Source: an uncultured Lachnospiraceae bacterium (GTDB lineage: Bacteria; Bacillota; Clostridia; Lachnospirales; Anaerotignaceae). Taken from it: DNA of 64,000 nt. Position 1 is the stretch's first letter. Each line of letters begins with the position of its first letter. The position numbers and the translations under genes are program-made. Of this stretch, positions 3,017-57,386 are shown one piece after another. The notes below the pieces were generated by a model. That model searched no databases. It saw nothing but the letters and a program-made list of their open reading frames with translations, and was not told where the DNA came from. The DNA lies in assembly GCA_944384295.1 (NCBI GenBank), contig CALWSU010000010.1, positions 2,061 to 66,060 on the forward strand, read 5' to 3'.

Positions 3017-4138
3017 TTACAGCATTACAGCCGTAATCAAAAGCACAGCAGCAAATATCAGATTCATTTTTGTGAAATCTTTCAAATATTTGCCTTTTGC
3101 CTCTGGCACTTCCTGTACAAAAAATTTATACGAAATCAAACTTGCCATAGAAGCAATCAATGTGCCCAAGCCGCCGATATTGACGCCAAAAAGCAGACCT
3201 TTCCATTCTGTCGTAAAGCCAGAAAGCAACACCGCAGCCGGTACATTGCTGACCACCTGAGAAAGCAGGAAAGAAACAAATAATTCGCGTCCTTCCAATA
3301 TAGATGATATGGCTTCTTGCATCGCAGGAATACGTCCCAAATTTCCGATAAAAATAAAGAAAAATACAAATGTAACCAATAAACTGTAATCCACACGCAA
3401 TAACACTTTGCGTGAAAATAACACAAACCAAACCAATGTAATAATCAATGCAGTGGTATAAGGCAATACATGAAATACTGTCAGCAGACATGCCGCAAAA
3501 ATAGCCAATAATACAGAAAGTGTGATTTTTTGTTTTACCTGCATCTGTTCAGAACGTTGGCTGGTAACCACTTCCGCAGCAAGCGGCGTATCTTGAATTT
3601 GCAAACAACATACCACAAGCAAAAATAAAGACAACAGCGTCAAAGGAAGCATAGTCAGTATAAATTCCCATGGCGAGATACCAGAAATGGTATATAGATA
3701 TAGATTTTGTGGGTTGCCGATGGGTGTCAGCATACTGCCCAAATTCGCCGCAATCGTTTGCAGTACCAAAAGAGGTATCATCTGTGTGCTTAGTTTTGCC
3801 ATGCGCAGCAATAATATGGTAAATGGTACAAATGTAATCAATGCCACATCATTGGTCACCAGCATGGCGAAGAAAAAGCAGAGCAGTACCAATACCAAAG
3901 AAAGCTGACGTAAATCCCCAGTACGCTTGAGCAAGGCATATGCCACACTTTGAAAAATCCCTAGTTCCTGCAAACCTGCCATCACTGCCATCAAACAGAA
4001 TAACAGCACCAGTACTTGTGTATTTAGATAGTCGATATAGGCGGCGTCTGGTGGTATGATGCACATAGAACAAAGTGCCAAGATACCAGAAATACAAAGT
4101 ATGGTTTCTTTTTTGAAAAATGCAATACATTTTTGCAT
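3017..4138 (-). CDS. SLC13/ArsB-NhaD (citrate transporter family) permease
   Basis: Highly hydrophobic 373 aa; motifs TNDVALITFVP, AANLGSMLTPIGNPQN, SQVVSNVPAA, GGLGTLIASMASL. Confidence 0.8.
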   Translation of the reverse strand: MQKCIAFFKKETILCISGILALCSMCIIPPDAAYIDYLNTQVLVLLFCLMAVMAGLQELGIFQSVAYALLKRTGDLRQLSLVLVLLCFFFAMLVTNDVALITFVPFTILLLRMAKLSTQMIPLLVLQTIAANLGSMLTPIGNPQNLYLYTISGISPWEFILTMLPLTLLSLFLLVVCCLQIQDTPLAAEVVTSQRSEQMQVKQKITLSVLLAIFAACLLTVFHVLPYTTALIITLVWFVLFSRKVLLRVDYSLLVTFVFFFIFIGNLGRIPAMQEAISSILEGRELFVSFLLSQVVSNVPAAVLLSGFTTEWKGLLFGVNIGGLGTLIASMASLISYKFFVQEVPEAKGKYLKDFTKMNLIFAAVLLITAVML

Positions 4139-4249: not shown

Positions 4250-4535
4250 TAGACTGTAGAAAAAAGTTTTATATTTTTTTCATGAACGCGGAAGGGTTTG
4301 GGGAACAAAGCGTTCCCCAAATTCCATCCGCAGTCGGAATTTATTTCCGACGAGGAAAAGCAGAAATTTCAAGGCTTTTAGCCGATGGAATGCCGCACCC
4401 CGAAAGAGACGGGGGCAGCGAAGCTGACTTTGCGAAGCAAAGTGCTTGACCAGAGCTTTATACTTCTGTCTACTCGTCAAAGGCTTGAATGAAATGAGCC
4501 TTTGACGAAAGGGTGTCGACTTTTTCGACACCCTG
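4250..4535 (+). mobile_element. MITE-like structured repeat, copy 1 (286 bp, carries module B)
   Basis: Ends tagactgtagaaaaa...tttttcgacaccctg; flanked by a 19-bp near-direct repeat tttcacttgaaaagcgttt (4231-4249) / tttcgcttgcaaagcgttt (4536-4554); homologous to four other copies. Confidence 0.85.
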
Positions 4536-6027: not shown

Positions 6028-6256
6028 CAGACTGTAGAAAAACTAGATTTTATATTTTTTCAAGCGCGCGGAAGGGATTGGGAAACGAAGCGTTTCCCAA
6101 ATAGAATCCGCAGTCGGAATTCATTTCCGACGAGGAAAAGTCGAAGTTTCAAGGCTTTTAGCCGATGGAACTTCGAGCTTTATACTTCTGTCTACTCGTC
6201 AAAGGCTTGAATGAAATGAGCCTTTGACGATAGGGTGTCGATTTTTCGACACTCTA
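6028..6256 (+). mobile_element. MITE-like structured repeat, copy 2 (229 bp, minimal form)
   Basis: cagactgtagaaaaa...tttttcgacactcta; flanks ataatta / gtaatta (7 bp, 1 mismatch), the right one containing the stop codon of the aldo/keto reductase. Confidence 0.85.
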
Positions 6257-6260
6257 GTAA

Positions 6261-10833: not shown

Positions 10834-10949
10834 AAAAAAAGAACCCCCTTTGTTATAAAACCATGTTTCAAACGATAACTGCAAATACCCTTGTCCCAAA
10901 AAACAAGGTTTGCTGTGATAACAAAGAGCGCTCACTTCTTTATTATGAA

Positions 10950-11045
10950 ACAGCGGGATGCGGGTTTTGTATCGCAAGCTATGCTTTTCGTTCCTGTGAC
11001 AACTCCCCGTTCACAAGACACTTAACGCACAAAGCCCTACTCTGT
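10950..11045 (-). ncRNA. THF (tetrahydrofolate) riboswitch
   Basis: Minus strand ACAGAGTAGG...TGCGTTAAGTG...GGGAGTTGTC...ACGAAAAG...TTGCGATA...CCCGCATCCCGCTGT matches the THF aptamer consensus, upstream of folT. Confidence 0.9.
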
Positions 11046-11184
11046 ATTTGCGTCTGTATGACTGGTATCATACAACGCCATTGTAGCACGCATACAAGGG
11101 AAAGTAAAGAGAGAAATCAGAAAAAAGAAAAACGCACAAAATCAGTATGCAAAGATTTTGTGCGTAGATTTTTTTCAATATGTT

Positions 11185-14760: not shown

Positions 14761-15053
14761 CAGACTGTAATAAAGTACATTTTTTACTTTTTTCAAGAAT
14801 GCAGAAGGGCTTGGGGAACAATTGTCAACACGTTTGCTGCGCAAACGCCAGCCATAAATGGCTGTCCGCACTTCTTTGCGGTGTGTAGTTCCCCAAATTT
14901 AATCCGCAGTCGGAATTCATTTCCGACGAGGAAAAGCCGAAGTTTCAAGGCTTTTTAGCCGATGGAACTTTGGTTTTATACTTCTGTCTACTCGTCAAAG
15001 GCTTGAATGAAATGAGCCTTTGACGACAGGGTGTCAACTTTTTTGACACCCTG
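14761..15053 (+). mobile_element. MITE-like structured repeat, copy 3 (293 bp, carries module A)
   Basis: cagactgtaataaag...ttttttgacaccctg; perfect 8-bp target duplication aaaactct (14753-14760 / 15054-15061). Confidence 0.88.
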
Positions 15054-15405
15054 AAAACTCTTCCAATTCTTCGTCTGCTTCCAAACGCAACAAAGCGTTT
15101 TCTTCAATAGTACCCAAACGCTCTCCGCTCAGATACCGAATCATAATTGCGTCTGCATCTCCTGTCACGCCATACGTCAATTCGATTCGTTTGGTGCGCA
15201 AAAGTGTTTTTGTTTCAGAACGTATTGCTGCGCAAATGACAGCGTTAATTTCCTGCTTTGTCAAAAAATCCGCCATACGCCCACGTAGTGCGACGGTTTC
15301 TTTTGCCCGTACCAGTTCGATTTCCACATCATAGATGGTAAATTCTTTTGCTTGTTCATACAACAGACAGATTTGTCCGTTTTCGGTTGGTATAGCAACC
15401 CGCAT
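15034..15405 (-). CDS. NifB/NifX family (dinitrogenase Fe-Mo cofactor-binding-like) protein
   Basis: MRVAIPTENG...AKEFTIYDVE, INAVIC, GVTGDAD...YLSG pattern; last six residues are encoded by repeat copy 3. Confidence 0.8.
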   Translation of the reverse strand: MRVAIPTENGQICLLYEQAKEFTIYDVEIELVRAKETVALRGRMADFLTKQEINAVICAAIRSETKTLLRTKRIELTYGVTGDADAIMIRYLSGERLGTIEENALLRLEADEELEEFSGCQKS

Positions 15406-16742: not shown

Positions 16743-16973
16743 CAGATTGTAGAAAAAGTATATCTTTTACTTTTTTTCAAGAACGCGGAAGGGTTTGGGA
16801 AACGAAGCGTTTCCCAAATTTAATCCGCAGTCGGAATTCATTTCCGACGAGGAAAAGCCGAAGTTTCAAGGACTTTAGACGATGGAACTTCGGCTTTATA
16901 CTTCTGTCTACTCGTCAAAGGCTTGAATGCAATGAGCCTTTGACGACAGGGTGTCGACTTTTTCGGCACCCTG
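16743..16973 (+). mobile_element. MITE-like structured repeat, copy 4 (231 bp, minimal form)
   Basis: cagattgtagaaaaa...tttttcggcaccctg; flanked by a 31/32-bp direct repeat differing by one C. Confidence 0.9.
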
Positions 16974-17012
16974 ATGTCCCCTAAGTTTTTTGACTTGTGG
17001 GACATATTCTTT

Positions 17013-38417: not shown

Positions 38418-38499
38418 ACAGAACACCGATATAAGCCAATAGAAACCAACATTGACAGCAATCCCAAAGCGTGGTATGCTGAACACACAACGATATATT

Positions 38500-38580
38500 T
38501 TTTGCTGGGGGTGCCGGATACAATCGGCTGAGAAATACCCTTTTTCACCTGATCTGGATCATACCAGCGTAGGGAAGCAT
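38500..38580 (+). ncRNA. TPP riboswitch
   Basis: GGGGTGCC...GGCTGAGA..TACCC...ACCTGATCTGGATCATACCAGCGTAGGGAA, followed by terminator gcgcagc...gctgcgc-TTTTT, upstream of thiD. Confidence 0.95.
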
Positions 38581-38683
38581 GAGAAAATGCAGAGCAGGCG
38601 CAGCAAAGGCGAAATTTTTTCGTAGCTGCGCTTTTTCTATGGAAAAAAAGAATAGTCAGGAAACAGAATAGGAGGAACGCAAT

Positions 38684-39499
38684 ATGAAACATGTTTTGAC
38701 AATTGCCGGTTCGGATAGCTGTGGCGGCGCAGGGATACAAGCCGATTTAAAAACCTTCAGCGCACAAGGCACCTATGGTATGAGTGTCATCACAGCGGTA
38801 ACTGTACAAAATACGCAGGGTGTTTTTGGTTGTCAAGATATTTCGCCGGAAATCATAAAAGGGCAAATGGACGCCATTTTTACAGATATTGCAGTCAGTG
38901 CGGTAAAAATCGGTATGGTATCTCAGATTCCGACCATACACGCCATTGCGGATAAATTGGAACAGTATCAACCAAAAAATATTGTATTAGACCCTGTTAT
39001 GATTTCCAAAAGCGGCTTTGACTTGATGCAGCCCGAAGCAAAAGAAGCGCTGATTTCTCGTCTGATTCCTTTGGCGTATGTGATTACGCCCAATTTACCA
39101 GAAGCAGAAGTGATTACAGGTATGCAAATCAAAGACTTATCTGCAATGGAAGCGGCAGCAAGAGCCATTCACAAAATGGGCGCAAAGCATGTACTGATTA
39201 AGGGCGGACATTTGGAAAATGACGCAACAGACTTGCTGTTTGATGGTACCCATGTGATTACATTGCAATCTGAACGCATACAGACCAAAAATACACATGG
39301 TACAGGCTGCACATTATCTTCCTGTATTGCGGCAAATTTGGCAAAAGGCAAAAGCGTAGAAGAAGCAGTGCGCATTGCAAAAGCGTATATCACAACTGCA
39401 ATTGCCCATGCATTGGATATTGGCAAAGGCGTTGGTCCAACCAATCATTTTTACGAATTATATACAAAAGCAGGCATTTGGGACGAAATCAAAGATTGA
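38684..39499 (+). CDS. thiD: Hydroxymethylpyrimidine/phosphomethylpyrimidine kinase
   Basis: [50 protein letters not shown]. Confidence 0.97.
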
Positions 39500-39536
39500 G
39501 AAACCGATAGAAACAAATTGTATCAAACATAAGAAA

Positions 39537-39820
39537 TGCGAAATACGCAACGCGAAAGACCGGCGGGGGATCTCCGCCGATCTTTCGTTTCATAGAGAGG
39601 GGGTAGTATTCTGGATTCACTGCACAGGGATCAAAAGCAGTGTGTCCTATCTATCAAAATAAAGGAAATTTTGGATGGAGTGAAATCCAAATGGATATTT
39701 CCTTTCGTCGTAAGCAAATCACATATGTTTCCTCTGATATATCGAGTATATCGAGGAGGGGGAAGGCAGCAGACACTACAATTTGCTACAGGGGTTGGCA
39801 ATGCGTCTGTGCCTTCGTTT
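39537..39820. ncRNA. Candidate structured non-coding RNA (five consecutive hairpins)
   Basis: Stems at 39553-39587, 39613-39647, 39661-39705, 39731-39756 and 39762-39816 in a gap between convergent genes; no known family recognised. Confidence 0.45.
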
Positions 39821-39926
39821 GTGACATAGATAGCATAACATATATTTTTGACGGAAATTTTGCGAAAAATCTTCAAAATTCTTAAGGAAAGCGTGCAAAA
39901 AACGAAAATTGGGAAAATTTGGGTGA

Positions 39927-40349
39927 TTAGTCGGTATTTTGCGTTTGTTCCAATAAAGAAAGCATCATACAAAAACCTGCAAATTGTAAAGAAACAGGTG
40001 AAACAAAAGATTCTCCTTGACTGCGTGCCTGTAAAAGTGCGTCATCATAATGCATACCATTTTGAATTTGTTGCAGTGTATGACAAAAAAGCAGACTTTG
40101 ACAAACATCATGCAATCTTTTTTGTGTATCTGTATCTACAAATGCACTCAACGCGCGCAATAATGTGACTTCTTTGGGCGGTTGGGAAACGGCTTCCTGT
40201 TGTTGTAATGTGGCGGCAGTGCGGATTTTCTGTAGATACTCTATGTCTATTTTTTGGCGCATGGTATCTAAAAAAGAAGCGATTTCACGTTGTGCGCTTG
40301 TGGTGTTTTGCAAAGTGCGTGCCAATGCAAAGACTTGATTTTCTTCCAT
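39927..40349 (-). CDS. Hypothetical helical protein (sporulation-cluster-like)
   Basis: RBS AAGGAG before MEENQVF; EVTLLRALSAFV pattern and hydrophobic C-terminus MMLSLL. Confidence 0.7.
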   Translation of the reverse strand: MEENQVFALARTLQNTTSAQREIASFLDTMRQKIDIEYLQKIRTAATLQQQEAVSQPPKEVTLLRALSAFVDTDTQKRLHDVCQSLLFCHTLQQIQNGMHYDDALLQARSQGESFVSPVSLQFAGFCMMLSLLEQTQNTD

Positions 40350-40417
40350 AAGTATACTCCTTTCTGTGCTGGCATATCCCATAACAGAAAATCCATAGCG
40401 TGATGAGAAGCAATGGG

Positions 40418-41302
40418 CTAAATCGCTGCATCTGCGCCAGAACTGGCGAAACTTTCTTGACATAATGCAGGCGTAAGCAATCCGCCATGTTGTTGCGCCT
40501 GCGCGCAAAGATATGCCTTGACTTGTGCAGGTGTCAAGTGTGGCGATTGTTCGAGCAGACAGGCAGCGATACCACTGACAAGCGGTGTTGCCATGGAAGC
40601 GCCGCTCATGGCGATATAATGCCCATCTATGATATTGTTGGTACTGCGGTTGGGCAATGAGAAATTGTAATCCGGTGAAAGCGCGGAAATGATGTTTTCA
40701 CCATGTGCCCAAACATCAGGCAATACAGGCGCGGCAAAACGCTTGCCCGCCAAAGCGGCAAAATAATGTTGGTCTTCCCATGTGCCAACAGACAGTACAT
40801 TGGGGCTGATGAGCGGCGGTGGTGAAAAACAGACGCCACCGTCTGGGTTTGCCGCTGCCGCAGTGACAACGATTCCTTTCTGCCAAAGTGCGTCCACTGC
40901 TTCCACAAGAGGAACATGGATTTTTCTGTCATTGGTGCCGATAGATAAATTGACTACTTTTATATTATATTTGGCGGCGTTGTCCATTATCCATCGCATG
41001 GCACGTATGGCACGGGCAGAAGTGCCTTGCCCATAGGCGTCTAATATTTTCAAAGCAATGATATGCGCTTGCGGTGCAGCGCCGCAATATTTGCCATCTG
41101 CATACCAGCCATTGCCGCAGGCGATGCCGGCGACGTGCGTGCCATGCCCGTTATCATCGTATGGCTGTGTGCGTCCATATAAAAAATCCACAAAAGCGAC
41201 AATGCGGTTGATGGGCTTTGTAAAGTCTGCAATGGCAGAGATGCCGGTATCCAAAAAAGCAATGCCAATTCCTTTGCCGGTATAATGTGTATCTGTGTGC
41301 AT
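40418..41302 (-). CDS. S8 family subtilisin-like serine protease (AprX-like, no signal or propeptide)
   Basis: Triad motifs FLDTG, HGTHVAG, SGASMATP; VVNLSIG. Confidence 0.9.
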   Translation of the reverse strand: MHTDTHYTGKGIGIAFLDTGISAIADFTKPINRIVAFVDFLYGRTQPYDDNGHGTHVAGIACGNGWYADGKYCGAAPQAHIIALKILDAYGQGTSARAIRAMRWIMDNAAKYNIKVVNLSIGTNDRKIHVPLVEAVDALWQKGIVVTAAAANPDGGVCFSPPPLISPNVLSVGTWEDQHYFAALAGKRFAAPVLPDVWAHGENIISALSPDYNFSLPNRSTNNIIDGHYIAMSGASMATPLVSGIAACLLEQSPHLTPAQVKAYLCAQAQQHGGLLTPALCQESFASSGADAAI

Positions 41303-41455
41303 AGCAAAAACCCCCTTTCTCTCAACTTATGAAGCAGACGCAATTCGGTGATTGTTGAGAGAAAAAACTTTCTGTGCTATGGCATGTTTTGGCACAAAAC
41401 AACATAAAAATAAAGTATGCCATCATCGTTGTGCGCAAAAAAAAGGGGGAATACC

Positions 41456-41992
41456 ATGGAGCAACAAAAAGCCGAAGATTTGTTGGGTATGATGGAAAGA
41501 TTGCGCCGGTTCCAAAAGCTGATGCAAAGTACAGAAAATTCGGATATGTCAAACACAGCACAACCTTCCATATCACAGACACCAATGTCACAGACATCCA
41601 TGTCACAGACACCAATACCACAAGATGCACAATGCAGGGAAAATATGATACTGGCGGCAATCCCATTTTTAGATTGGGCATATCAAAAGGACTTATATGT
41701 TGTGGTACGGCTGATGCAGATGCGGCGTATGTGTGAAGGGGGATTATTGGAAGCGCGCAGCAAAGAGGAGGCACCGCAAATCCGCAGACAAAAGATGTTG
41801 GAAGCGATTTTGCCATTTTTACCGAAGCAGGAACAACAGCAAATCGACTTTTTATGTCGTATGATGCAGGCAAAATACATTTTAGAACAAAGGGAGGATT
41901 TATATGCAGGTATGGGAAAAACCAGAAATACAAGCCTTGGGGGAAGAACGGATTCATTTATTGCAAGAAGCGGTAGAAAAAAGCCGGGATAA
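41456..41992 (+). CDS. Hypothetical protein with SQTP/SQTS repeats
   Basis: RBS AGGGG; repeated LAAIPFL / LEAILPFL helical units; divergent from the protease. Confidence 0.65.
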   Translation: MEQQKAEDLLGMMERLRRFQKLMQSTENSDMSNTAQPSISQTPMSQTSMSQTPIPQDAQCRENMILAAIPFLDWAYQKDLYVVVRLMQMRRMCEGGLLEARSKEEAPQIRRQKMLEAILPFLPKQEQQQIDFLCRMMQAKYILEQREDLYAGMGKTRNTSLGGRTDSFIARSGRKKPG

Positions 41993-42176
41993 AACAGGGC
42001 TTGCCAGATTAGATGTATTTTTAGAATACAGCGAAAAACTAGCGGAAGGCGGCGCGCTTTCTGCGCAACAAAAAGAAGCCTTGATTTTGGCAATGGAAGA
42101 AAGTCTATCTCCACAAGAGAAACAACAATGGCAGCAGGCACAGCAATTGATGCACATGTTTTCACAAAACGCATAA
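41904..42176 (+). CDS. Small helical hypothetical protein
   Basis: RBS GGAGG before MQVWEKPE; overlaps the previous ORF by 89 bp in another frame. Confidence 0.7.
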   Translation: MQVWEKPEIQALGEERIHLLQEAVEKSRDKTGLARLDVFLEYSEKLAEGGALSAQQKEALILAMEESLSPQEKQQWQQAQQLMHMFSQNA

Positions 42177-42241
42177 AAAAAGTAAAAAAATACGCCTCAG
42201 TTCTAAAATATTGGGAAAGAACAGGCGTATTTTTTATATGG

Positions 42242-42472
42242 TTATCGTTCGCCTTGGGAAAGCAAAAGCAAGCATGCAAGTGCGGCAGAAGGGAAAGCTG
42301 ATGTATTTTTTTGCTGTGGGTTGGTATGTTTGGACGGCTCTTTGTTTTCTGTATGTGACATGGGCATGTGCGACATGTGCGGCATGTGCGACATGTGCGG
42401 CATGTGCGACATGGTTGGAACAGCAGTTTGATTTTGCAGAAATGGCGTAGGGATTTGTTTTTTTGTATACAT
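42242..42472 (-). CDS. Small His/Met/Pro-repeat protein
   Basis: Minus-strand RBS AAGGAG shortly before the ATG; MSHMPHMSHMPHMSHMPMSH encoded by an 18-bp tandem repeat. Confidence 0.65.
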   Translation of the reverse strand: MYTKKQIPTPFLQNQTAVPTMSHMPHMSHMPHMSHMPMSHTENKEPSKHTNPQQKNTSAFPSAALACLLLLSQGER

Positions 42473-42619
42473 TTTGATACACTCCTTTTTGATATGACAA
42501 TCTCTTTTTTTTAGATATATGCAGTGAGAAAAAGTTTTTTGCCCTTTTTTTACACGAAAGCGTCATTTTATGATATGATGAAAAGAAAAAACAGATGAGA
42601 AGGAAAAGACTGGTGCAGT

Positions 42620-43411
42620 ATGAAAAAGGAACGACGAGAGCGAAACTTCCGTATTTTGGAGTTTCGTGAAAATAAATATGATATCATCGGGGATATACAT
42701 GGCTGTTATGAAGAATTGATTTTATTGATAGAACAGTTGGGATATGAAAAAAAAGATGGTTTATATGTCCACCCAGAAGGCAGAAGGTTGATTTCTGTGG
42801 GTGATGTTGCGGATAAAGGTCCTCGCAATTTGGATTGTCTACATTTTTGGATGGACCAAGTAACATATAATGGCGCATTTTGGGTACATGGCAACCATTG
42901 TAATAAATTATATCGTTATTTTTTAGGGAATCATGTACGTATATCGCATGGACTGGAAAAAACACTTTGCGAATTGGACGCATTGCCGAAAGAAGAAAGA
43001 CAGGCATTTCGCCGTCGGTATATGCAATGTTATGAAAGCCAATGCTATTATCTTTTGTTGGATAAAAAACGTCTGGCAATCGTGCATGGCGGCTTGCAGG
43101 AAGAAAGTATGGGGAATTTTTCCGGCAGGATTCGCGCGGTATGCTTATATGGAGAAACCACAGGCGAAACAGACGAAAACGGCAGACCACAGCGCAGGGA
43201 TTGGGCGGCGTCTTATCATGGGAAAGCATTGGTGGTATATGGACATACCGTAACGGCTGCGCCGATATTGGTCAATCATACGGTAGATATTGACCAAGGC
43301 TGTGTATATGGCGGATATTTAACGGCATTGCGCTATCCTGAAATGGAATTTGTGCAGGTGCGTGGCAAGCCTTATGCAGAATATCATGGAGATGGCGTAT
43401 TGCCAAAATAA
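42620..43411 (+). CDS. Metallophosphoesterase, PrpE-like (bis(5'-nucleosyl)-tetraphosphatase)
   Basis: GDIHG, GDVADKG, GNH, HGG, YGHT, DQGCVYGG.LTA motifs. Confidence 0.85.
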   Translation: MKKERRERNFRILEFRENKYDIIGDIHGCYEELILLIEQLGYEKKDGLYVHPEGRRLISVGDVADKGPRNLDCLHFWMDQVTYNGAFWVHGNHCNKLYRYFLGNHVRISHGLEKTLCELDALPKEERQAFRRRYMQCYESQCYYLLLDKKRLAIVHGGLQEESMGNFSGRIRAVCLYGETTGETDENGRPQRRDWAASYHGKALVVYGHTVTAAPILVNHTVDIDQGCVYGGYLTALRYPEMEFVQVRGKPYAEYHGDGVLPK

Positions 43412-43727
43412 AAAAATATTTGTATCAGAATATAAAAAGGGTATGATATTTTTGAATGAGAAAAAATATCATACCTTTTTTTGATTCTGATTTTGGTATT
43501 GAAAATCATACCATTTTTTTCAGAAAATAAATTGACAAATGTATATTTTTTTCTTTATGATGAAAAATATAGAAAAAAGATTTTGATATGCCATACAAGA
43601 AAGCACGAAACTTTGAAACAATGAATCTAGTTTCGCGCTTTCCGTTTTTTGGGGATATGGCAAAAATGTATTTTTTCTAATCACTGGCAAAACAAACAAT
43701 AGAAAAACAGAAGGGAGTATCAGAACA

Positions 43728-45101
43728 ATGCAACATTATATGGAACGATTGTTTCATCTCTCCGAAAACCGTACCAATGTCAAAACGGAGATTGCAGCAG
43801 GTGTGACCACATTCATGACAATGGCGTATATTTTGGCTGTCAATCCCAGTATATTGGGCGAAACTGGCATGGACAGCGGCGCGGTGTTTACAGCGACAGC
43901 CGTTGCTTCTGCGTTTGCAACGCTTTTGATGGCATTCTTTTCCAATTATCCGTTTGCGCTTGCGCCAGGCATGGGCTTGAACGCATTTTTCGCGTATACG
44001 GTCGTACTGAAAATGGGCTTTAGTTGGCAGACAGCACTTGCGGCGGTATTTGTCGAAGGGATTATTTTTATTGTGCTTTCTTTGACCAATGTACGAGAAG
44101 CAATTTTCAACTGTATTCCATTGAGCTTGAAACTGGGTATTACAAGCGGGATAGGGCTATTTATTGCTTTTATTGGTCTGCAAAACAGCCACTTGGTTGT
44201 TGATAGTTCTACATTGGTATCTTTATTCCCATTTCGTACTTCTTTGGAGGACGGCAGTTTTTGGTCTATGGGTATGGGCGCAGTATTGGCGTTTGTGGGT
44301 GTGATATTGACCGCTGTTTTGATGTATAAAAAAGTGCCGGGCAGTATTTTGCTTGGGATTTTGGGTACATGGATATTAGGTATTTTGTGTGAGTTGACTG
44401 GTCTGTATCAGCCCAATTTAGAATTGGGTATGGCTTCTGTATTGCCAGATTTTTCCGCGGGTCTGAGCATACCTTCTTTGGCATCGACATTCTTTCAGAT
44501 GGATTTTTCTGGTTTGCTGAATTTTAATTTTATTACGATTATGTTGTCGTTTTTGTTTGTGGATTTATTCGATACCATTGGTACACTCATTGGTGTTGCA
44601 TCAAAAGCCGATATGTTGGACGAAAACGGAAAGTTACCGCGTATTCGAGGTGCACTGCTTGCCGATGCTGTCGGCACAACCGCTGGCGCGATTTTAGGTA
44701 CTTCTACCGTAAGCACTTATGTAGAAAGTTCCTCCGGCGTTATGGCAGGCGGCAGAACGGGCTTGACTTCTTTGGTAACAGGGATTTTATTCCTGCTTTC
44801 TCTGTTGTTATCACCCATCTTTTTGGCAATTCCTTCTTTTGCCACAGCACCCGCATTGATTGTGGTAGGGTTTTTGATGGTAGAATCTATTTGCAAAGTG
44901 GAGTTTGCCGATTTGGCAGAGGCAATGCCTGCATTTGTGGCTATGATTGCTATGCCGTTTATGTATTCTATTTCAGAAGGGATTGCACTAGGTGTGATTT
45001 CCTATGCTTTGATACATGTTTGTACAGGCAAAGCCAAACAAGTACATTGGTTGCTGTATTTGTTGGCACTTGCATTTATTTTGAAATATATTTTTGTGTA
45101 A
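43728..45101 (+). CDS. NCS2 family purine permease (AzgA/PbuO-like)
   Basis: TTFMTMAYI..VNP, APGMGLNAFF, DLFDTIGT, TYVESSSG, GGRTGLT, PMFSISEG-like motif. Confidence 0.92.
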   Translation: MQHYMERLFHLSENRTNVKTEIAAGVTTFMTMAYILAVNPSILGETGMDSGAVFTATAVASAFATLLMAFFSNYPFALAPGMGLNAFFAYTVVLKMGFSWQTALAAVFVEGIIFIVLSLTNVREAIFNCIPLSLKLGITSGIGLFIAFIGLQNSHLVVDSSTLVSLFPFRTSLEDGSFWSMGMGAVLAFVGVILTAVLMYKKVPGSILLGILGTWILGILCELTGLYQPNLELGMASVLPDFSAGLSIPSLASTFFQMDFSGLLNFNFITIMLSFLFVDLFDTIGTLIGVASKADMLDENGKLPRIRGALLADAVGTTAGAILGTSTVSTYVESSSGVMAGGRTGLTSLVTGILFLLSLLLSPIFLAIPSFATAPALIVVGFLMVESICKVEFADLAEAMPAFVAMIAMPFMYSISEGIALGVISYALIHVCTGKAKQVHWLLYLLALAFILKYIFV

Positions 45102-45122
45102 ACACAAAAAAGCAAAAAAAAT

Positions 45123-45168
45123 AAAAAAGTGGTTGTCTCTCTGTCATAGAAGGACAACCGCTTTTTTT
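45123..45168. terminator. Bidirectional intrinsic terminator
   Basis: aaaaaagtggttgtc...gacaaccgctttttt between convergent genes. Confidence 0.75.
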
Positions 45169-46996
45169 ATGCTGCTGTTTCAAAAAATTGTTGGCGCCAT
45201 ACCAAGAACATATAAATTGTCCAAATCTTTCGACTGTTGTCGGCTTTTCCAGCGCGATGCTCGTCCAGATAACGTACAATTTCTTCTGTTTTGAAAAATT
45301 CTTTTGCCGCTTTGCTTTCAAATGCTGCTTTCACACGGTTGTAATATGCGTCTTCTTTCAGCCAGATACGAATAGGTACAGGGAATCCGAGTTTCTTTTT
45401 CTCTGCTACCATATCAGGTAAATAACGGTGTGCCGCCTGACGCATCGCATATTTTGTATTTTCTTTATTGACTTTATAACGTGTCGGTACGGTACGCGCT
45501 ACATCAAATACCACACGGTCTAAGAAAGGTACACGTACTTCCAGAGAGTGCGCCATACTCATTTTATCTGCTTTGAGCAAAATGTCCCCAATCAACCAGA
45601 AATGCATATCAATATATTGCATTTTGGTCACATCATCTAAATGTTTTACTTTTTCATAATAAGGTGCGGTCAACTGCATATAGGGATATTTGCCACTGGG
45701 GGATTTGAGTATTTTTTCTCTTTCTGCCATGTCAAACATAAACGCGTTACCAATGAAACGTTGCTGCAATTCCTTGCTGCCGCGTATGATATAGTTTCGT
45801 CCTTTGATATGGGGCATTTTTTTTGCGACAGCCCCCATAGCTTTACGTACAGGACGTGGCAGTCTGGTAATGGGCAACAAGTCGTGCGGTTCCCGATAAA
45901 TGTTGTAGCCGCCGAAAAATTCGTCTGCGCCTTCCCCAGACAAAGAAACCTTGACATGTTTCGCGGCAGTCTGGCTGACAAAATACAGCGCGATGGCAGA
46001 AGGGTCAGCCAAAGGCTCGTCCATATGGTATTGTACTTTGCTGATGGTATCCCAATATTCGTCCTTGGAAATCAGTTTGCTGTAATTATCAATATGGATT
46101 TTTTCAGATAATGCTTTTGCATAATCGATTTCGTTGTATTTTTCATAGTCAAAGCCCACAGTGAATGTTTTATCTCCATGAAAACATGCCGCAACATAAG
46201 AACTGTCCACCCCGCTGGAGAGGAAGGAACCTACTTCTACATCGCTGATTTTATGGCTTTGTATAGAGTTTTGCATGGCTTGGTCGATTTCTTCTACAAA
46301 GCTTTCCAGACTTTTGTTTTGGTCTGGTTCAAAAACAGGCTCCCAATACCGATGTATGTCCAATTTTCCATCATGGAATGTAAAACAATGGGCAGGGGGC
46401 AGTTTGAAAATACCTTTAAAAAATGTTTCTGGCAGTACGCTATATTGGAATGTTAGATAATTTTCCAGTGCTTCTGGATTGACTTGTTTTGGTAGTGTGG
46501 GGTATTCCAATATACTCTTGATTTCAGAACCATATATGAATTGCCCATCATGCAAGGCATAGTAAAACGGTTTGATACCGAAAAAGTCACGCGCGCCAAA
46601 TAGGGTTTGTTTGTTTTTGTCCCAGATGACAAAGGCAAACATACCACGCAGACGAGGCAATAGGGCTTCGCCGTATTCCTCGTACCCATGCAGCAAGACT
46701 TCCGTATCTGCGTGACTGCTGAGTACATGTCCTTTTTGCAGCAATTCTTCACGCAGTTCTAAATGGTTATAGATTTCGCCATTGAATGTAATGACCATAT
46801 CTTTGGTTTCATTGTATATGGGCTGTGTACCGCCCTCTAAGTCTATGATGCTTAAACGACGAAATCCCATAGATACACCATCATCTATATGTTTTCCATC
46901 GCTGTCAGGACCGCGATGTATGATTTTTTGCATCATATTTTCTAATATTTCTTCGGAAGTCGCAAGACGTCCTGTAAAGCCGCAAATGCCGCACAT
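45167..46996 (-). CDS. asnB: Asparagine synthase (glutamine-hydrolysing)
   Basis: N-terminal MCGICG, HRGPD, RLSIID, FNGEIYN, ARD.FGIKP, LSSGVDSS, SGEGADE.FGGY, LEVRVPFLD. Confidence 0.95.
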   Translation of the reverse strand: MCGICGFTGRLATSEEILENMMQKIIHRGPDSDGKHIDDGVSMGFRRLSIIDLEGGTQPIYNETKDMVITFNGEIYNHLELREELLQKGHVLSSHADTEVLLHGYEEYGEALLPRLRGMFAFVIWDKNKQTLFGARDFFGIKPFYYALHDGQFIYGSEIKSILEYPTLPKQVNPEALENYLTFQYSVLPETFFKGIFKLPPAHCFTFHDGKLDIHRYWEPVFEPDQNKSLESFVEEIDQAMQNSIQSHKISDVEVGSFLSSGVDSSYVAACFHGDKTFTVGFDYEKYNEIDYAKALSEKIHIDNYSKLISKDEYWDTISKVQYHMDEPLADPSAIALYFVSQTAAKHVKVSLSGEGADEFFGGYNIYREPHDLLPITRLPRPVRKAMGAVAKKMPHIKGRNYIIRGSKELQQRFIGNAFMFDMAEREKILKSPSGKYPYMQLTAPYYEKVKHLDDVTKMQYIDMHFWLIGDILLKADKMSMAHSLEVRVPFLDRVVFDVARTVPTRYKVNKENTKYAMRQAAHRYLPDMVAEKKKLGFPVPIRIWLKEDAYYNRVKAAFESKAAKEFFKTEEIVRYLDEHRAGKADNSRKIWTIYMFLVWRQQFFETAA

Positions 46997-56742: not shown

Positions 56743-57094
56743 TAGATTGTAGAAAAGTACATTTTTTACTTTTTTCAAGAACGCGGAAGGGTTTGGGGAA
56801 CCAATGTCAACACGTTTGCTATGCAAACGCCAGCCATAAATGGCTGTCCGCACTTCTTTGCGGTGTGTAGTTCCCCAAATTCAATCCGCAGTCGGAATTT
56901 ATTTCCGACGAGGAAAAGCCGAAGTTTCAAGGCTTTTTAGCCGATGGAATGCCGCACCCCGAAAGAGACGGGGGCAGCGAAGCTGACTTTGCGAAGCAAA
57001 GTGCTTGACCAGAGCTTTATACTTCTGTCTATTCGTCAAAGGCTTGAATGAAATGAGCCTTTGACGACAGGGTGTCGATTTTTTCGACACCCTG
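56743..57094 (+). mobile_element. MITE-like structured repeat, copy 5 (352 bp, modules A and B)
   Basis: tagattgtagaaaag...ttttttcgacaccctg; flanks gtatatattgtatttcaaaatatacag / atgtattttgtatttaaaaatatacag (27 bp, 4 mismatches). Confidence 0.88.
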
Positions 57095-57386
57095 ATGTAT
57101 TTTGTATTTAAAAATATACAGAATGGCAAAGGTAAATACGCACAAAGCGCGGATTATGCGCAAATACTGCAAAAAATGCAGGTGTACCCCATTTTTTATA
57201 AGCAAAATTTAATATCAAAATGGAAAAATTGCCCATTGACTTTGTGAATTATTTGTGTTTTAATAAAGAAAAGATGATAATTTTTAGTCATTTGTCTGAT
57301 ATGCGTGCCAAAGTGCGCACGTTGTCAGAGAACAAGCAAAACAATTGTAATTTATTGTAATCTATACATATAAGGAGGAGTTTCCC

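Follow-up and report, generated by a model that had tools for sequence, protein, structure and literature searches.

What is a stack of five hairpins doing between two convergent genes? The question is raised by a stretch of 64,000 nucleotides (nt), here called the window, from an uncultured Lachnospiraceae bacterium of the Anaerotignaceae (GenBank assembly GCA_944384295.1, contig CALWSU010000010.1, positions 2,061 to 66,060 of the forward strand). A first-pass annotation, made from the letters of the window, had described five hairpins in a gap of 427 base pairs (bp) between thiD and a convergent gene, and had proposed a sponge for the protein CsrA on the plus strand, C-rich loops complementary to Shine-Dalgarno (SD) sequences on the minus strand, or a silenced peptide. 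Gap and hairpins are confirmed, extending from the thiD stop at 39499 to the stop of the convergent gene at 39927. We conclude that this array is probably a new regulatory RNA, and not a pile-up of terminators or a CsrA sponge. In the explanation that we favour, to which we assign a rough probability of 0.55, it would be a conserved structured RNA read from the minus strand, derived from a lost gene of the Peptidase_C39-like type and acting in trans.

Five hairpins fold on both strands

All five hairpins fold separately on either strand. H1 (39553-39587) is a 14-bp GC-rich hairpin with a predicted folding energy (dG) of -25.5 kcal/mol on each strand, and H5 (39762-39815) forms a long stem of -21.4 to -21.6. 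Between them lie H2 (39612-39648) and H3 (39661-39708), each at -14, and H4 (39731-39756) at -9. The loops and G-rich linkers quoted in the first-pass annotation are found as described, and the common frame GAAAG/AAAGG/GAAGG...CTTTCG that it noticed is real, being shared by H1, H3 and H5.

In comparison with dinucleotide shuffles the 431-nt gap has z-scores of -4.1 (plus) and -5.4 (minus), and none of 100 shuffles folds as well. When the genome is cut into non-overlapping segments (7101 of 8215 scored), the GC-corrected folding energy of the 280-nt array ranks 63 on the plus and 113 on the minus strand, that is in the top 0.9-1.6%. Most of the segments that fold better are copies of a miniature transposon.

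The array is conserved in sister species

Through homologues of the neighbouring protein of 140 amino acids (aa), at 87-89% aa identity, the same succession of thiD, array and gene was found on contigs from at least four additional lineages. The coding DNA of these sister species is 81-90% identical to the window, and the fourfold-degenerate sites of the flanking genes are 33-46% diverged. The linker between H1 and H2 (39588-39611), on the other hand, shows 0 substitutions at its 24 positions in each of four sister lineages. H2 has 2 substitutions in 37 positions, both within its internal loop, H1 has 1-3 in 35, and the 5' end together with H5 has 5-7 in 64. The spacer between thiD and H1 is 45-60% diverged, with indels, the H4 region diverges at a near-neutral rate, and the promoter block described below (39832-39905) is almost invariant. 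The conserved blocks are very short and lie beside neutral sequence, so recent recombination cannot explain them. These conserved modules of the array are under purifying selection.

Further, several of the changes that do occur keep the stems paired. In H1 a G-C pair has become A-U in L060/L061; in H5 an A-U pair has become G-C in L063-L066, in addition to three one-sided G-U changes; and in the outer stem of H3 the pairs 144/179 and 145/178 are changed on both sides. In the minus-strand consensus structure 98.6% of the cells pair and 4 pairs are changed on both sides. The covariation score is 0.094, compared with 0.069 in shuffles, and is reached by 0 of 500 shuffles, while slid controls of the same structure drop to about 40% paired. 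A lack of structural conservation in relatives had been named in advance as a refutation, and the outcome of this test favours a functional element. That the array is such an element, conserved for its function, we regard as very likely.

The same figures bear on the idea that the array has no function, being either what a rearrangement left behind or the decayed copy of a miniature transposon, and folds by chance. It does lie at a synteny break specific to this clade, H4 varies freely, and the genome carries dozens of copies of a hairpin-rich, IS1182-type transposon that targets terminators. Four modules with 0-11% substitution, next to the far higher divergence of the fourfold-degenerate sites and of the adjacent spacer, are nevertheless not what debris would show. 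With the compensatory changes, the lack of transposon similarity and the lack of a second copy also against it, this idea is hardly credible.

Database searches agree with a single, unfamiliar element. No Rfam family is matched at its gathering threshold, and there are only sub-threshold matches at E 10; the best near-miss, FsrA (RF02273), scores 18.4 bits against a gathering value of 80 and covers exactly the linker and H1, while RsaE is not listed among the matches even at E 10. The array is single-copy in its 2.3-Mb genome, has no copies in 40 relatives apart from a 70-nt promoter island, and was found neither in phages and plasmids nor in a sample of 400 genomes of the order. Terminal inverted repeats and target duplications around it amount to weak short matches, and H1 and H5 share only their base pairs.

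Orientation of the array

Several features point to the minus strand. In relatives both homologous flanks of the array, described in the next section, are sense in this orientation, and the conserved extended -10 element points leftward. A U-tract stands behind H1 on the minus strand of the sister species. Transcription from the 140-aa gene, which has no terminator of its own, must in any case enter the array on this strand. Of the single transitions within helices that form on either strand, three (in H1 and H5) leave a G-U pair on the minus strand where the plus strand has A-C, and in the upper part of H5 three more single transitions fit the minus strand. Judged from these sequence patterns, it is likely that the array is a minus-strand RNA.

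The combination of a GC-rich stem and a U-tract expected of an intrinsic terminator is found at H1 only; H2, H4 and H5 have no U-tract on either strand. H1 is also flagged as terminator-like on the plus strand. The predicted RNA, about 280 nt long, would start near 39825 and end near 39545 on the minus strand, and H1 would act as a two-way terminator, ending both this RNA and thiD.

A CsrA-titrating sponge would have to be read from the other strand. Like CsrB and RsmZ, the array has many hairpins and GGA in some of its plus-strand loops, namely those of H1 and H3; these and the H2 loop ACAGGGAUC, which is close to the CsrA consensus from in vitro selection (SELEX), are invariant, and csrA is present in the genome (C2:77695-77850). 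Unlike in those sponges, however, GGA is not dense and shows no enrichment. The 291 nt contain 9 GGA, compared with 5.8 +/- 2.0 in shuffles (p 0.095), and only 2 of them are fully unpaired in the minimum free energy fold. The density is about one per 32 nt, while known CsrA sponges carry GGA about once per 15-20 nt. No plus-strand promoter is evident behind the thiD terminator H1, both homologous flanks are minus-sense, and the single transitions in H1 and H5 break plus-strand pairs. Further, fliW is adjacent to csrA (C2:77695-78241), and FliW is the usual protein antagonist of CsrA in Firmicutes. Since this adjacency is the partner-switch arrangement of Firmicutes, CsrA is probably controlled by FliW and flagellin and not by an RNA sponge. 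The sponge proposed at first is therefore very unlikely.

The third early proposal, a translationally silenced small protein, concerns an open reading frame (ORF) on the plus strand at 39691-39885. The ORF exists, and its GGAG, 10 nt upstream of the ATG, lies with that ATG inside H3. It is not conserved, however: a haplotype of the same species has a +1 frameshift, sister species carry indels of -2, +2 and -4, L062 and L063 have no ATG, and the translation matches no family. We give the silenced peptide practically no chance.

Homology to a gene of related species

In an initial search the block 39832-39901 was the only part of the gap matched in other congeners. This block (39832-39901/39905) shares 79-82% identity with the sequence upstream of a 250-aa gene that adjoins gltX in three of them (G006, G007 and G012). 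The product is a membrane-anchored Peptidase_C39_2 protein, and the gene, here called C39-like, is present in 13 of 14 congeners. In this genome (G000), whose assembly is 91.5% complete, it was not found. The promoter block on the minus strand (39832-39905) is thus homologous to the promoter of the C39-like gene, and its extended -10 element, TGTTATGCT at 39840-39832, is kept genus-wide as TG(T/A)TATACT in the congeners and TG(T/G)TATTCT in the sister species. Beyond the promoter the homology extends over the 5' untranslated region (5'UTR) as far as remnants of the SD and ATG, and these make up the 5' arm of H5 today.

Upstream of the -10 element, the block at 39848-39878 holds TTGACG-N17-CTTCAA, an inverted TTGAMG pair. 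In congeners of the G001 type TGTCGAA is found on the opposite strand of the same promoter block; it resembles a Spo0A box. It may be that one transcription factor controls both the C39-like gene and this RNA.

The other end of the array leads to the same gene. A covariance model, R1, of the 3' module (H2, linker and H1) was searched against 113 genomes of the family. Outside the clade it scores best in G006 and G007, with 37-38 bits at a site that immediately follows the stop of the 250-aa gene, whose last codon and stop codon are matched by the opening bases of the model. Six further congeners (G001, G002, G003, G004, G009 and G011) give 23-29 bits, and G013 gives 23.3 bits when its locus is searched directly. 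The 3'UTR motif, GAAU..UACCC(C/U)CUCUC, is found in 10 congeners, nine by the model and G012 by alignment. It is conserved in all aligned congeners, although the proteins are only 48-59% identical between groups, and the terminator stems that follow it differ in sequence.

Outside the genus, one locus in another genus of the family (L071, G349:C47:10660-10762) matches the 3' module at 29 bits, with a C-rich CGCCCCCUUGAUU and a terminator of similar stem, and no C39-like gene lies upstream of it. This match could be chance or a distant relative of the motif.

The middle of the array tells a different story. Its 172 nt from H5 to H3 were considered as a relic of the coding sequence and rejected, as Smith-Waterman scores equal those of shuffles (z below 1).

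With both flanks homologous and the coding sequence absent, the array appears as the promoter, 5'UTR and 3'UTR of a lost gene, moved to a new place. We hold it highly likely that the array derives from the C39-like gene locus. On this account the promoter and 5'UTR (39816-39905), and the C-rich 3'UTR with its terminator (39553-39611), would have been retained, while the coding sequence would have been replaced by about 170 nt of unrelated hairpin-forming sequence (H5, H4 and H3). A 35-nt hairpin, H2, would have been inserted into the retained unit, and the whole unit would have been relocated between thiD and the S8-peptidase operon in the ancestor of a small clade.

Read from its 5' end, the predicted RNA can be divided into parts of very different conservation. 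The 5'-end sequence GUCACAAAC (39816-39825, minus strand) is invariant, while the stretch between the -10 element and +1 varies; the start is placed, by prediction, about 7 nt downstream of the -10 element. The C-rich apex of H5, CCAACCCCUG, is invariant as well. It is followed by the C-rich linker CUUCCCCCUCCUC and H4 (together 39731-39763), of which the C-run is conserved and H4, the least conserved hairpin of the array, diverges near-neutrally and with indels. A 9-nt unit in H4, TATATCGAG, occurs twice in the window and three times in the same-species contigs L055, L057 and L059, and the G-run at 39757-39762 has one extra G in the same-species contigs L043 and L058. Next comes a conserved stretch, AUUUGCUUACG.CGAAAGG, with H3 and its loop CACUCCAUCC (39661-39719); compensatory changes preserve the outer stem, and L062 has a rearranged inner part.

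Downstream of H3, UUGAUAGAUAG (39649-39660) appears to be the relic of the last codon and stop, since in the alignment by the covariance model it corresponds to GAU UGA UA, where the 250-aa gene of G006 and G007 ends. The upper stem of H2 and its 13-nt loop UUUUGAUCCCUGU are invariant; H2 is the clade-specific 35-nt insertion and is not in the 3'UTRs of G006 or G007. Last, before H1, is the invariant, single-stranded, C-rich linker AGAAUACUACCCCCUCUCUAUGAAA (39588-39611), the proposed seed, which is homologous to the genus-wide 3'UTR motif of the C39-like gene.

C-rich motifs and possible targets

Four C-runs are enriched on the minus strand (CCCC, p = 0.004): the H5 apex, the linker that follows H5, GAUCCCUGU in the H2 loop, and UACCCCCUCUCU in the linker just before H1. 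They are unpaired or in loops and are invariant across the sister species, and the H1 loop reads CCCCC on the same strand. Conserved unpaired C-rich motifs and an intrinsic terminator, the marks of the C-rich base-pairing small RNAs (sRNAs), are thus both found here.

The design of these runs is like that of RoxS, RsaE and FsrA, and for this reason we propose a trans-acting anti-SD sRNA. The invariant unpaired C/U-rich stretches would pair with G-rich SD regions and block translation of the targets. The chief pairing stretch would be UACCCCCUCUCU, just upstream of H1, and further candidates are the C-rich loops of H5 and H2 and the CCCCCUCCUC linker. We regard this mechanism as a tentative proposal with somewhat less than even odds. 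Among the three options of the first-pass annotation, a minus-strand RNA with anti-SD loops is the one that the data favour: the C-runs, the homology of promoter and 3' module and the G-U pattern speak for it. The scan for targets gave no outlier. For the main seed the initiation region of the neighbouring S8 peptidase, GAGAGAAAGGGGGU, ranks among the best 3.3%, and the sister species conserve it, but as a target it is only a lead.

Pairing between 5'UTR and 3'UTR of the kind seen in icaR was also considered for the C39-like mRNA of the congeners, and is no better than in shuffles (z -2.0 to +0.6). In the array the coding sequence is lost and yet the motif is conserved, so action in cis on the gene's own SD cannot explain the conservation.

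A minus-strand RNA need not pair with mRNA at all. It could bind or decoy a protein, for instance an RNA-binding protein or a ribosomal component that recognises C/U-rich single strands. Loops and linkers that are more conserved than stems, several repeated C-rich motifs and no mRNA target that stands out would all suit such an RNA. Still, no candidate partner protein is encoded nearby, and the motifs resemble the anti-SD sequences of known base-pairing sRNAs; this makes a decoy improbable in our judgement.

The locus and its rearrangement

The left flank of the array is thiD, for phosphomethylpyrimidine kinase (38684-39499, plus strand; Pfam PF08543 Phos_pyr_kin, 339 bits). The right flank is the 140-aa gene (39927-40349, minus strand), the last gene of an operon that includes an S8 subtilase gene (40418-41302, minus strand). 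The 140-aa protein matches no Pfam or NCBIfam family, and no function is assigned to it; the label sporulation-type, given to it at first, has for this reason no basis. Two riboswitches of the window are ordinary Rfam matches: one for thiamine pyrophosphate (TPP) upstream of thiD (38497-38592, 69.9 bits), and one for tetrahydrofolate (THF) on the minus strand (10949-11046, 92.1 bits).

The arrangement of the two flanking genes is not that of the congeners. There thiD is followed by one canonical terminator within about 20 nt and then by an LCP-family gene, in 12 of the 13 congeners that carry thiD; the exception, G008, has another region downstream. In 14 of 14 congeners the homologue of the 140-aa gene is followed by a terminator hairpin and, after it, by a convergent gene; 11 of them have the hairpin right behind the stop, and in G001, G008 and G010 it lies farther downstream. 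In six congeners with both genes on one contig the distance from thiD to the 140-aa gene is 30-38 kb. In this genome the LCP gene sits on another contig. Both ancestral terminators were thus lost at the rearrangement. No terminator lies between the 140-aa gene and the array, so the minus-strand transcript of that gene must enter the array.

This suggests a reading in which there is no RNA gene and there are no trans targets: the array would be a long structured 3'UTR and terminator zone that acts only in cis, ending and stabilising the transcripts of the S8-peptidase/140-aa genes and of thiD and insulating the convergent units. The loss of both terminators fits it well, as do the terminator-like character of H1 on both strands and the lack of a specific target. 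However, terminators tolerate change as long as the stem is kept, while here the unpaired linker and the 13-nt H2 loop are invariant. Such a zone also leaves aside the promoter-like block with an extended -10 element between the 140-aa gene and the array, and the conservation of the C-rich motif in the 3'UTR of a different gene in other congeners. We consider a purely cis-acting zone unlikely.

A misassembly of the junction can be ruled out by independent contigs: it is present in six metagenome contigs of the same species, at about 99% identity. The species occurs in ERZ28615473, ERZ28614877, ERZ28613860, ERR6352012, ERR15887311 and ERZ1090860. Within the species there is an A/G variant at 39580, where G restores a perfect H1 stem, as well as C/A at 39722 and an extra G at 39757.

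The rearrangement is not limited to the array. In this genome and its sister species the gene order is reshuffled compared with the rest of the genus (39500-45500 compared with G001:C4 and G013:C64): the block order A-B-C-D of the relatives has become C|A joined, B now being found on contigs C38 and C14 and D on C8. These changes of gene order may be the work of the abundant miniature transposon.

This transposon has some features in common with the array, being hairpin-rich, non-coding, 230-350 nt long and situated beside terminators between genes. The array differs in that it has no similarity to it, is single-copy and is without terminal repeats or target duplication. As a decayed copy of the transposon the array was rejected: a profile of 18 full copies, used with nhmmer --max at E 100, gave no match.

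Copies in the window are at 4252-4535, 6028-6260, 14761-15054, 16745-16974 and 56745-57096, and sites outside it are C14:25700-26150 of this genome, L010 (G002) after thiD, and L066 at 3289-3334. One copy follows gltX, between two copies of the gltX terminator hairpin, and another stands directly after the thiD terminator in the congener G002. In the sister strain L066 a copy abuts H1 on the thiD side, in place of the U-tract, so H1 serves as a transposon target like an ordinary terminator.

Discussion

A trans-acting, minus-strand RNA derived from the C39-like locus has a number of points against it. Concerning the strand, the call amounts to 3 events against 1 in the shared helices, or 6 against 1 when the upper part of H5 is included, as one transition in H3 fits the plus strand. 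The RNAalifold energy is slightly better on the plus strand (-76.2 compared with -71.3), with a weaker covariation term there. The minus-strand U-tract behind H1 is poor in this species (CGUUGCGUAUUUCG), and the promoter is without a good -35 element. As there are about five independent lineages in all, the covariation draws on few events and its figures are supportive, not conclusive. At 91.5% completeness of the genome, the absence of the C39-like gene is not absolute. Finally, when the five C-rich motifs were scanned against 3623 candidate initiation regions, the scores formed a smooth tail with no outlier, and since G-rich SD sequences are common the seed idea is not specific.

To what extent does the array resemble known RNAs? 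RsaE and RoxS bind to G-rich and SD sites by way of C-rich motifs (PMC6158497), and base-pairing sRNAs of the RoxS, RsaE and FsrA type share a C-rich design with G-rich SD partners (PMC6158497, PMC8216469). Similarly, the array has unpaired C-rich motifs in its loops and upstream of a terminator with a C-rich loop, and its predicted partners are SD sequences. Unlike RoxS and RsaE of the Bacillales and FsrA of B. subtilis, however, it is about 280 nt long with five hairpins, compared with about 85-115 nt, has no family-level Rfam similarity to them and belongs to another order (Clostridia, Anaerotignum-like).

By origin the comparison is with OxyS, which evolved from a fragment of a peroxidase mRNA, replacing the gene (PMC8825220). 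The situation here is of that type: the flanks are homologous to the promoter and UTRs of relatives, and the gene was not found in this genome. Like OxyS, the array would be a non-coding RNA that keeps the promoter and part of the mRNA of a lost protein gene. It differs from OxyS in keeping both UTRs, with an unrelated middle and a unit that has moved, and in that the ancestral 3'UTR motif is conserved genus-wide.

A third comparison concerns the congeners. In sRNAs derived from 3'UTRs the seed is typically right before the terminator (reviewed in PMC7821165), and the icaR 3'UTR carries a UCCCC anti-SD motif (PMC3868564). The C-rich motif of the congeners likewise stands in the 3'UTR, right before a shared terminator. 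Unlike the icaR 3'UTR, the element of this clade has lost its parental coding sequence and so cannot act on its own mRNA. By analogy, the closest system is OxyS in origin and the C-rich sRNAs of the Bacillales in design, and the array belongs to no described family.

A wider reading would extend to the whole genus: the C-rich tail of the C39-like mRNA would be a trans-acting, 3'UTR-derived regulatory RNA in all its species, and would have been freed in one clade, where the coding sequence was discarded, promoter and seed were kept, and new hairpins (H5, H3 and H2) and a new locus were acquired. This we regard as possible but doubtful.

To our knowledge, gut Clostridia other than C. difficile have so far yielded very few regulatory RNAs. 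The array is also a practical warning for annotation, as hairpins stacked between two convergent genes need not be a terminator cluster or a transposon. If expressed, it would represent a new sRNA family with C-rich seeds like those of RoxS, RsaE and FsrA in a distant lineage, and, with OxyS as the first, a second, independent and unusually legible case in which an sRNA arose from the mRNA of a gene lost later on. As the ancestral state, a gene with a conserved 3'UTR motif, persists in relatives, the origin of the sRNA and its entry into a regulatory network can be tested by comparison. If the genus-wide reading is true, these uncultured gut Clostridia would hold a stepwise record of the birth of a stand-alone sRNA from an mRNA.

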